A DNA stretch of 64,000 nt, taken from positions 60,797 to 124,796 of the forward strand of contig JBHLNZ010000003.1 in the NCBI GenBank assembly GCA_048941015.1. Direction: 5' to 3'. Source of the stretch: Promethearchaeota archaeon (GTDB taxonomy: Archaea; Asgardarchaeota; Lokiarchaeia; Sigyniarchaeales; SOKP01). Position numbers and translations under genes: made by a program. Under the pieces are notes generated by a model. The model was not told the origin of the DNA. It saw only the letters and a program-made list of their open reading frames with translations, and ran no database searches. This document shows positions 657 through 19,969 of the stretch, in pieces (position 1 is the stretch's first letter; every line of letters starts with the position of its first letter).

Positions 657-691
657 ACATTATTTGAAAGAAAATAGATAAATTGCTATAG

Positions 692-795
692 TGGGAAAGG
701 GGGGCTTCGAACCCCCGACCTCACGGTTATCAGCCGTGCGCTATACCAGGCTAAGCCAATGGAGAGAAGCCTTAAAAAAAGGTTTCTACTCTCCC
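692..795 (-). tRNA. tRNA-Ile(GAU) with 30-nt intron (759-788) at position 7/8
   Basis: Spliced product GGGAGAG TG GCTT AGCCTGGTA TAGC G CACGG CT-GAT-AA CCGTG AGGTC GGGGG TTCGAAG CCCCC CTTTCCC A folds as a cloverleaf. Anticodon at 731-729. Intron bounded by 4-bp helix GGAG/CTCC and 3-nt bulges AGT and ATT. Confidence 0.88.
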
Positions 796-830
796 TAGCC
801 ACATTCCCGTTTCAGAGCTTGATATTTAAT

Positions 831-17352: not shown

Positions 17353-17485
17353 TGGACCTGGCGGGAATTGAACCCGCGGCCTCGTGAATGCGAATCTCGC
17401 GTTGTATTATTCTTATATATACAATCACGCGTAGCAGTAGAGGTCAGATTTTGAATCCTAACATCTGCGACTAATCTACAGGCCC
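17353..17485 (-). tRNA. tRNA-Ala(CGC) with two introns: 24/25 (17432-17462) and 30/31 (17396-17425)
   Basis: Acceptor GGGCCTG/CAGGTCC with G3:U70 and A73; T-arm GCGGG TTCAATT CCCGC. After splicing the anticodon arm reads CGTGA TT-CGC-AT TCACG. Both introns have a 4-bp central helix and 3-nt bulges. Confidence 0.9.
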
Positions 17486-17590
17486 ATTAATCTTGACTAA
17501 AATAACATATTATAAAAAATTGTATAACTAAAAATTTTTTCTTTTTCAAGGTGTTAAAAAATCAATTTTAAGCCTAAGAATTTAAAATTA

Positions 17591-19969
17591 CTAATATTGT
17601 GTTCGAGCGATTATATCATTTTGTGCAATTTCAGATAATTCAGTAAAATAGACAGCATATCCAGCAATTCTTACAACTAAACCACGATAATTATTTGGAT
17701 TTTTTTGAGCATCACATAAAGTTTCTTTACCAACAACGTTAAATTGAATATGGAAACCTCCGTTCTTTTTGAAAAATGATCTTATAAGCGGTACAAATGT
17801 TTCTATTTTAAAGTTTTTAGGATGAAAATCTATTATTATAGAGGTTCCATTAGTAATTAATTTATTTTCTAGTTTCATAATAGAATTTAAGATGGCCGTT
17901 GGACCCTTTTTATCAAAATTGTGAGTAGGACCAATTCCATTTGAAAGTGGTTCTTTAGATTTTCTTCCATTGGCAGATGCTGCTGTAAAAAAACCAAATA
18001 CTAAATGAAATGAAGTAGAATATATTCCGGGATTATATTTACCACCTCGGTAATTATTATGTTTTAAAATCTCTTCGCAAAATAATTTTGCTACATCATG
18101 AGCAATCAAATCAACATAATCATCATCATTTCCAAATTTTGGCACTTTATTAATAAAAATCTGACGCCACTCTTCTCCTTTTTTACCATTATAGGATCCC
18201 TTATAATTTTTTGAAAGCATTTGAACTAATTGGTCATATGTAAGAAGTTTTTCTTCAAAAACTATTTTTTTAATAACAGCCAGACTATCTGCTACAGTTG
18301 CTAATCCAATCAATTGAGTAGTTGTAAAATCATAAAAAGCACCTCCATTTGTAATATCAAAACCTCTATTAATACAGTCATCGATAGTTGATGATAAAAA
18401 TGGTTGGGGGTTTAGTTCAGCAATTGCTCTTTCAAGATTATTCATTGTTTCAACCATCTTTTTAATAAAATATCTTAATTGTAAAGTAAACTCCTCCCAT
18501 AGATCTTTAAATGAAGCGATTTTCTTTGAGTTTTCAATGCCATATTTTCTTTTTATAAACATATCTGTTCCGTTATTTAGTGTTAATTCTAACAACTTTA
18601 CGACGTTTATTTGAGTTGCATTAGTACATCCGAAAGTTTTATGAGGATGTGCAGGTTCAACACAACCGATTGGAGCATATTCTCTAGCATCTTCGAGGGA
18701 ATATCCAAGATTTTTCAAACCAGGTATAATGACTAAATCATTAAATAAAGCAATGCTTGCGCCTGATTTAATTGCTTCCCCTGTCTTTAATATCAAATTA
18801 TCTGGAGTTTTATCATGTATACGAACAGAAAATGCTGGTTGAATAGTCTTTAAATGGTTATAGGAATCTAGAAACAAGTATGATAATTCATTTGTTACAT
18901 TCTTTCCAAATCGATCAATCCCACCGATTGTCAAATTTTCAGCAATTGGCGGACCTTCTCCAGCAACAATTCCCTTATGCATAACATAATTCCATAATGT
19001 ACTTAATTTTATATAAAAACATTCAATAAGGAATTGAACTTCTTCATTAGTAATTCTATCATTTTTTATATCTTTTTTATAATATGGATAAAGAATTTGA
19101 TCCAAGCGTCCAATACTTATCGCAAAACCCCCATCTTCTAATCCTGATATAACATGAGTAAAATAAATTAATTGTAAAGCTTCTTTAAAAGATTCTGGGG
19201 GATTTTCTGAAACATTTAAACATATTTTCGAAATTTCAATCAGTTCATTTCTGCGATCGGTGTTATTTTCTTGTTCTGCTAAATTTTTTGCGAGCTTTGA
19301 AAATCTTTTTATATATTTTTTTACACCTTCTAAAATAATAATAACTGAACGTATAAAATTTAATTTTTCTGGCTCATTTGGGAAATATTTTAACTTTTTT
19401 TCTGCTTTTTGAATTAAATCATTAAAACCTCCTTTTAAAACGTTTTCATGTCCTGGAAAAAAATGTCCGACTCCATTTGTGATATTAACGTCGACAGTAT
19501 AAGGTAACAGTACCATTAGTTCTGTTAATTCAGAGTTAAGATAATTATTGAATCGAGATTTCACAGTATCTTCTTCATTTTTCCAATAAGGTATGATCTC
19601 TTCTTTTATAATCCGTTTTTCAGTTTCAGTTAATAAAAATTTCTGAATCTCTCGACTACTGTACAGATCCAAATCAAGTTCAATTGTATCTACCCGAACT
19701 TCGGGATATAAAGGGGTACCAACAAATTTTGTAGTACGATTTCCAACTATGAACTCGTCGGTCCTAATCTGGATTGTCATGTTTGTTAATAAATGGTACA
19801 TCGCTTTTGCAAATCGAAGTATTTGTGGTTCTCCTTTTGTTTTTTTATAGGACTCAGTAAATAGTTTAGCTCTCTCTATACAAATTTCGTGTGGTTGAGA
19901 TAAAATCTTCTTTTTCATTTCTAAAGTCCTTTCTTTATAATTTAGAATAAACGATTGTTCTAGTTGCAT
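17591..19969 (-). CDS. Glycyl radical enzyme (PFL2/PflD-like)
   Basis: SIGRLDQ.LYPYY, GCVEP Cys loop, PKFGNDDD.VD, C-terminal LVVRIAGY. Confidence 0.92.
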   Translation of the reverse strand: MQLEQSFILNYKERTLEMKKKILSQPHEICIERAKLFTESYKKTKGEPQILRFAKAMYHLLTNMTIQIRTDEFIVGNRTTKFVGTPLYPEVRVDTIELDLDLYSSREIQKFLLTETEKRIIKEEIIPYWKNEEDTVKSRFNNYLNSELTELMVLLPYTVDVNITNGVGHFFPGHENVLKGGFNDLIQKAEKKLKYFPNEPEKLNFIRSVIIILEGVKKYIKRFSKLAKNLAEQENNTDRRNELIEISKICLNVSENPPESFKEALQLIYFTHVISGLEDGGFAISIGRLDQILYPYYKKDIKNDRITNEEVQFLIECFYIKLSTLWNYVMHKGIVAGEGPPIAENLTIGGIDRFGKNVTNELSYLFLDSYNHLKTIQPAFSVRIHDKTPDNLILKTGEAIKSGASIALFNDLVIIPGLKNLGYSLEDAREYAPIGCVEPAHPHKTFGCTNATQINVVKLLELTLNNGTDMFIKRKYGIENSKKIASFKDLWEEFTLQLRYFIKKMVETMNNLERAIAELNPQPFLSSTIDDCINRGFDITNGGAFYDFTTTQLIGLATVADSLAVIKKIVFEEKLLTYDQLVQMLSKNYKGSYNGKKGEEWRQIFINKVPKFGNDDDYVDLIAHDVAKLFCEEILKHNNYRGGKYNPGIYSTSFHLVFGFFTAASANGRKSKEPLSNGIGPTHNFDKKGPTAILNSIMKLENKLITNGTSIIIDFHPKNFKIETFVPLIRSFFKKNGGFHIQFNVVGKETLCDAQKNPNNYRGLVVRIAGYAVYFTELSEIAQNDIIARTQY

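Follow-up and report, generated by a model that had tools for sequence, protein, structure and literature searches.

Two short introns with overlapping splicing motifs in a tRNA-Ala(CGC) gene of a Loki-type Asgard archaeon

Results

Gene structure

Positions 17353-17485 of the window (the whole 64,000-nucleotide stretch of DNA analyzed here) were confirmed to hold a real tRNA-Ala gene, interrupted by two introns of about 30 bases each, from a Loki-type Asgard archaeon. The host is a Promethearchaeota MAG of 3.59 Mb (29.4% G+C, 95% complete), referred to below as G000. On the minus strand, the gene reads as tRNA-Ala(CGC) in the order exon (23 nt), intron (31 nt), exon (6 nt), intron (30 nt) and exon (43 nt). 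With a probability of roughly 0.8, we consider it a functional gene with two short BHB-type introns that would be cut by an (alpha-beta)2 EndA and joined by RtcB in no fixed order. Splicing itself is predicted; what was shown is the gene with its junctions and motifs, together with the genes for the enzymes. Gene-strand numbering in the following list takes window position 17485 as 1 and covers a precursor of 133 nt.

17353-17485, minus strand: whole tRNA-Ala(CGC) gene, G1 to discriminator A73, from the cloverleaf after in-silico splicing and from syntenic intronless orthologues
17463-17485, minus strand: exon 1, 23 nt (gene 1-23), with the acceptor 5' strand, U8 A9, D-stem 5' strand GAUU, D-loop AGUCGCA and G22-U24
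17432-17462, minus strand: intron 1, 31 nt (gene 24-54), at site 24/25, with unambiguous boundaries taken from intronless orthologues
17434-17437 (CUGC) with exon 17465-17468 (GCAG), minus strand: intron 1 central helix, 4/4 pairs, with covariation in 10 orthologues
17426-17431, minus strand: exon 2, 6 nt, CGCGUG (gene 55-60, tRNA positions 25-30), with C25 at 17431
17396-17425, minus strand: intron 2, 30 nt (gene 61-90), at site 30/31, from a shuffle test and the unambiguous boundary in the relative G003
17398-17401 (CGCG) with exon 17428-17431 (CGCG), minus strand: intron 2 central helix
17419-17424 with 17402-17407, minus strand: intron 2 inner stem, UUGUAU (gene 62-67) with AUACAA (gene 79-84)
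17353-17395, minus strand: exon 3, 43 nt (gene 91-133), with A31, anticodon loop UUCGCAU, anticodon-stem 3' strand, variable loop, T-arm, acceptor 3' strand and A73
17509-17518, minus strand: TATA-like A/T box TTTTTATAAT (gene strand), 24-33 nt upstream of G1, read directly

When both inserts were removed in silico, ARAGORN returned a 72-nt tRNA-Ala(cgc) cloverleaf with stems of 7, 4, 5 and 5 bp. The spliced tRNA carries the identity elements G3:U70 and discriminator A73 and has the T-loop UUCAAUU; CCA is not encoded in the gene. The sequence agreed base for base with the initial annotation, which had described a tRNA-Ala(CGC) with junctions at 24/25 and 30/31 and a middle exon of 6 nt. At the unspliced locus, ARAGORN called no tRNA in the window and the Rfam tRNA model reached only 18 bits; in a permissive Rfam scan, the tmRNA model matched the acceptor and T arms alone. 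The A/T box TTTTTATAAT is a putative archaeal promoter of the gene.

A different division of the exons, using a GG inside intron 1 to restore the GG of the D-loop, was tried and rejected. Such a division calls for three introns and leaves the D-stem mismatched, and the layout given above is fixed by the intronless orthologues.

Splicing motifs

The helices, bulges and inner stem that had been proposed for the two introns were each found in place. For intron 1, gene positions G18-G21 (GCAG) pair with C49-C52 (CUGC) in 4/4 Watson-Crick pairs, with bulges AU/G and UA/C (slash, cut). For intron 2, C55-G58 pair with C85-G88 (CGCG with CGCG), again in 4/4 Watson-Crick pairs, with bulges UG/A and AG/A and an inner stem of U62-U67 with A79-A84. 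Chance agreement was measured by shuffling the introns with fixed boundaries, under a strict register of a 4-bp helix, 3-nt bulges and an inner stem right after the bulge. The helix and inner stem of intron 2 were equalled in 0 of 5000 shuffles and those of intron 1 in 0.4%. In G003, the inner stem of intron 2 reaches 8 bp from unrelated sequence, compared with 6 bp in G000, and the central helix is 4/4 in both.

The inner stem of intron 1 in G000 has 1 bp in the strict register and 4 bp when the 5' bulge is allowed 4 nt; in most orthologues it has 3-6 bp. Its central helix is 4/4 in G000, G054, G003, G007 and two metagenomic copies and 3/4 elsewhere. In an alignment of ten intron 1 regions, 87.5% of the cells of the helix and inner stem pair, compared with 27-43% in a control in which the 3' partner was slid by 1-3 columns. 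Two pairs are changed on both sides, and the covariation score exceeded that of all 500 of 500 shuffles. Intron 2 is a clean HBh' motif, and intron 1 is weaker in this genome and is backed by covariation in ten orthologues.

The outer exon-exon helix h is 1 bp for both introns in G000, below the 2 bp or more of a strict hBHBh' motif. The outer helix of intron 2 in G003 has 2 bp and is formed solely with the last two bases of intron 1. Because the outer helix has at most 1-2 bp in each, neither intron is a strict hBHBh' motif; intron 2 is a relaxed HBh' motif, and intron 1 probably is one too. A published classifier needs a flanking helix of at least 2 bp and would not call intron 1 of G000 canonical (bioRxiv 10.64898/2026.10.13.758758).

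A C/D-box-like reading of intron 1, suggested by GAUGA ... CUGA in some orthologues, was set aside. The inner stem and the pairing with exon GCAG already account for these bases, and 30 nt is too short.

Intron 2 of G000 begins with A, like exon 3, and ends with G, like exon 2, so that three placements give an identical product. A cut at 29/30 or 31/32, yielding the same mature sequence, is nevertheless very improbable, since 30/31 is the only site at which each cut follows the second base of a 3-nt bulge next to the CGCG helix, and the intron 2 boundary in G003 lies unambiguously at 30/31.

On the preferred reading, the acceptor and T arms of the precursor would form and its middle would fold into two adjacent hairpins, each a relaxed HBh' motif. 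Each hairpin would have a 4-bp central helix made by the exon bases just upstream with the 3' end of the intron, then a 3-nt bulge holding the 5' cut (4-nt for intron 1 in this genome), then the inner stem of the intron; the 3' cut would fall two bases beyond the central helix, and a true outer helix would be missing. The heterotetrameric (alpha-beta)2 EndA would cut each motif and RtcB would join the exons, after which CCA would be added and AlaRS would read G3:U70.

Splicing order

C55 of the precursor (tRNA C25) is both the third base of the 3' bulge of intron 1 and the first base of the central helix of intron 2, in G000, G054 and G003 alike. It must be bulged for intron 1 and paired for intron 2, and therefore the canonical motifs cannot coexist at one instant; the role of C25 would alternate between bulge base and helix base, and the motifs with it. 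The initial annotation had taken this conflict to imply ordered splicing. The sharing of C25 and the mutual exclusion of the motifs are real, but no order follows from them, and ordered splicing of the precursor is plausible without being implied by the sequence.

Each motif draws only on its own intron and on the exon immediately before it, so that neither needs the prior removal of the other intron. When folding was constrained, either strict motif could be made to form in the full precursor and in both intermediates, for 2-5 kcal/mol above the ensemble. Both motifs are possible in every state, unlike a nested order, in which one motif would appear only once the other intron had gone. The probability of the intron 2 helix fell from 0.4 in the full precursor of G000 to 0.06 without intron 1, and from 0.12 to 0 in G003, because exon 1 then pairs through its 3' end with exon 3. 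The intron 1 helix probability was unaffected by the removal of intron 2. When all bulge bases were forced to be unpaired, the effect stayed in G000 (2.0 versus 4.8 kcal/mol) and was gone in G003 (3.96 versus 3.92). Within the folding model, the energies give a weak hint for intron 2 first, and not a robust one.

The strongest form of the ordered reading, in which the C25 conflict makes one intron always leave before the other, was judged unlikely. It would fit the one-base overlap kept in all three two-intron species though the introns of G003 differ in sequence, the helix-only probabilities, which favor intron 2 first in both species folded, and the 2-bp outer helix that the last two bases of intron 1 can give the intron 2 motif in G003; reports of ordered processing of multi-intron pre-tRNAs also exist, on nested archaeal introns and on C. 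merolae (PMC3728597). The conflict, however, is a single base pair between motifs that are not nested and are both possible in the unspliced transcript as well as in each of the intermediates. The strict-motif costs were similar in all states and equal in G003, and, as one enzyme acts on one motif at a time, mutual exclusion alone sets no direction.

No fixed order is required on the preferred reading, and any preference would probably be for intron 2 first. The chance that intron 2 is preferentially removed first was put just below even, that of no marked order somewhat below even, and removal of intron 1 first was considered quite improbable.

The overlap may bear on the 6-nt exon. If cut at both ends before ligation, this exon would be held by very few base pairs, and one complete cut-and-join cycle at a time would therefore be functionally desirable. 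The alternation of the motifs would favor such single cycles and spare the exon from release as a free hexamer. An extended version makes C25 a toggle, by which the motifs would never be cut in the same round, forcing a cut-join-cut-join sequence, probably with intron 2 first, that protects the 6-nt exon. On this version, as long as intron 2 is still present, intron 1 may also guard the 3' end of exon 1 against mispairing with exon 3. We regard the toggle as a rather unlikely elaboration.

Splicing enzymes of the host

Two EndA homologues and RtcB were found in the host genome. EndA beta is complete (205 aa) and has Ala in place of the catalytic His. EndA alpha is represented in G000 by its last 42 residues only (G000:C26:1-126), the N-terminal 158 residues being cut off by the contig start. 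The full EndA alpha of G054 is 97.6% identical to this 42-aa fragment. Its best match was the A. pernix catalytic subunit 3P1Z_B (1e-36), the Tyr/His/Lys triad is present, and in the alignment its GISKPR lies opposite VEKPR of 3P1Z_B, the segment with K44 and R46 of the specificity loop. The loop Lys and Arg (KPR) were seen in three relatives (G054, G018 and G008), the loop thus being read from relatives and not from the alpha of G000 itself, and both EndA paralogues are present in four relatives. By its sequence, the host EndA belongs to the (alpha-beta)2 type, with a catalytic alpha and a His-less beta.

In A. pernix, the Crenarchaea-specific loop (K44, R46) confers broad substrate specificity on EndA (PMC3241643), and Asgard archaea carry an (alpha-beta)2 EndA with the L1 loop (PMC5829648). 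The relaxed-specificity endonuclease that had been proposed from the introns therefore finds support, at the level of sequence, in the two EndA paralogues and in the loop seen in relatives.

The orthologous locus across the genus

Orthologues were sought in the 42 genomes of the genus with a pattern for the anticodon and T-arm region, and one tRNA-Ala(CGC) gene was found in 25 of them by this search. Of the 24 loci in relatives, 23 have one or more flanking genes in common with the locus described here, namely a PFL-like glycyl-radical enzyme gene and/or a class I aminoacyl-tRNA synthetase gene. The 25 genes fall into six intron layouts at one orthologous locus within a single genus, as follows.

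No intron (72 nt): 11 of 25 genes, with the same mature layout; four were run through ARAGORN and all four were called tRNA-Ala(cgc)
Intron at 24/25 only: 3 of 25 genes
Introns at 24/25 and 30/31: 3 of 25 genes, in G000, G054 and G003
Intron at 32/33: 1 of 25 genes
Intron at about 27/28: 3 of 25 genes
Intron at about 27/28 and a T-loop intron: 4 of 25 genes, in G001, G006, G023 and G016, the T-loop insert being 28 nt at about 58/59

Because the intronless orthologues display it, the mature layout is fixed independently of any splicing motif. Across the Ala(CGC) genes of the genus, the exons are conserved with compensatory changes in the anticodon stem and the introns diverge. A pattern search of the 154 genomes of the order found the two-intron layout in G000, G054 and G003; a fourth pattern match, in G029, is G+C-rich and looks unrelated. 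Five further orthologues with intron 1 only were found in JGI metagenome and metatranscriptome contigs. These contigs were also scanned for exon 2 joined to exon 3, with or without intron 2, and contained no spliced or half-spliced form of the tRNA; the same scan returned unrelated tRNAs and coding matches.

Many Ala(UGC) genes of the genus have an intron at the same 30/31 site, with the GCGAG 3' end seen in intron 2.

Between G000 and G054, the tRNA gene is identical at 132 of 133 positions and the synthetase flank at about 94%, and the PFL-like gene on the other side at only about 65-68% (stretch compared: window about 17486-19969). The PFL-like genes of these two genomes fall in different ones of two deep clades. 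This pattern points to a recombination or replacement breakpoint at or beside the tRNA-Ala(CGC) gene. The PFL-like flank had been tried as a species proxy for mapping intron gains and was discarded, as its identity of about 65% between G000 and G054, despite the 132 of 133 identity of the tRNA gene, indicates that it does not track the species tree.

Other tRNA genes and the D-loop

The third intron of the window, which the initial annotation had grouped with the other two as non-canonical and about 30 nt long, was verified in a tRNA-Ile(GAU) gene at site 7/8, with a length of 30 nt.

692-795, minus strand: tRNA-Ile(GAU) with a 30-nt intron at 7/8 (window 759-788), from a match of Rfam tRNA model positions 8-63 to window 700-758 and from a T-arm/acceptor scan

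Its intron has a GGAG/CUCC central helix and bulges AG/U and AU/U (slash between the second and third base). With introns allowed, ARAGORN miscalled this gene as tRNA-Glu(ttc) at window 691-808 on the minus strand. About 27 tRNA genes were detectable genome-wide by ARAGORN, Rfam or the T-arm/acceptor scan, roughly a dozen of them with extra sequence; introns or missing assembly probably conceal many others. Two tRNA genes in this dozen, also of 133 nt (G000:C35:13352-13484 and G000:C116:15914-16046), appear to carry a pair of inserts, each about 28-29 nt long and one lying in the D-loop.

In the mature D-loop AGUCGCA, the first G of the usual GG pair is C, and the conserved G18-G19 is thus absent. 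The C in place of G18 had been correctly recognized from the sequence, but it is genus-wide and extends to intronless genes. Of the 25 Ala(CGC) genes of the genus, intronless ones included, 13 have C here, 5 have A and 7 have G, and of the 12 Ala(UGC) genes read from the genus 10 have A or C. Since intronless genes have it too, the deviation is best read from these comparisons as a lineage trait of tRNA-Ala that is unrelated to the introns.

Functionality of the gene

A decaying or non-functional gene, whose inserts are poorly removed and whose GCG codons are read instead by tRNA-Ala(UGC), has in our judgment only a very small chance of being correct. The absence of an Ala(CGC) pattern match from 17 of the 42 genomes of the genus would agree with it, although many of these genomes are incomplete. 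GCG codons should also be rare in a genome of 29% G+C. The weak inner stem of intron 1 in this genome is set against central helices that are 4/4 in both introns, and the D-loop without G18 against the same D-loop variants in Ala(UGC) genes and intronless Ala(CGC) genes of the genus. G3:U70, A73 and the T-loop are intact, and the introns have diverged between exons that are strictly conserved and whose stem changes are compensatory. These observations favor a functional tRNA-Ala(CGC) gene.

Discussion

Implications

The layout of this gene extends published Asgard observations to a Loki-type genus and leaves the current understanding unchanged. What is specific to it are the 6-nt exon, the one-base overlap of the motifs and the series of six layouts at one locus. 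The gene is invisible to ARAGORN and to the Rfam tRNA model, so that such genomes seem to be without tRNAs that are actually present. Within the archaea most closely related to eukaryotes, the six layouts form a compact natural series for following tRNA intron gain and loss. An Asgard (alpha-beta)2 EndA could conveniently be assayed on the 133-nt precursor, which would also be informative on how very short exons survive splicing.

Comparison with known systems

Heavily interrupted Asgard tRNA genes with non-canonical and multiple introns were described in 2024 (Valentin-Alvarado et al., PMC11291895). A 2026 preprint reported that D-arm introns are systematically missed, that introns lie at BHB boundaries and have been acquired more than once, and that two EndA paralogues are present in most Asgard genomes (bioRxiv 10.64898/2026.10.13.758758). 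The tRNA-Ala(CGC) gene resembles the multi-intron genes of both studies in its non-canonical introns of only about 20-30 nt, which in this kind of gene frequently lie in the D-arm and frequently number several, in being missed by standard annotators, in its BHB-type boundaries and in repeated gain and loss at orthologous loci. Those studies center on Atabeyarchaeia, Freyarchaeia and Jordiarchaeaceae, whereas the gene described here belongs to a Loki-type genus. They score each intron in a fully spliced context, in which the interaction of neighboring motifs is not treated; in this gene, unlike the published Asgard cases, the introns lie 6 nt apart and have one base in common.

The enzyme genes are similar to those of the crenarchaeal-type (alpha-beta)2 EndA (PMC3241643, PMC5829648) in having two paralogues, an alpha with Y/H/K and a Lys-Pro-Arg loop and a beta without the catalytic His, with the difference that the alpha gene of the host is cut by a contig end. 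Relaxed HBh' and hBH motifs and multi-intron tRNAs have long been known from Thermoproteales (Marck & Grosjean 2003; Sugahara 2007/2008; review PMC4090602). The thermoproteal tRNAs share with this gene a 4-bp central helix of exon and intron, cuts in the bulges, the HBh' form without an outer helix, introns in the D-arm and anticodon stem and a co-occurring (alpha-beta)2 EndA. The present host differs in belonging to another phylum and in its mesophile-like genome of 29% G+C.

In nested archaeal pre-tRNAs, the motif of the last intron forms only once the others have been removed (Tocchini-Valentini et al. 2009, as described in PMC3728597). On that description, they are alike in carrying several BHB introns per pre-tRNA and in going through repeated cycles of two cuts and one ligation; the two motifs of tRNA-Ala(CGC), in contrast, are self-contained and clash at one base. 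The nuclear tRNAs of C. merolae have independent BHB introns whose order of removal is kinetic and correlates with motif free energy (Soma et al. 2013, PMC3728597). That system is a eukaryotic one with a different endonuclease, and its introns are far apart (D-arm, anticodon loop and T-arm). Its motifs nevertheless fold independently, as do those of the tRNA-Ala(CGC) precursor, for which a kinetic rather than a forced order would be expected.
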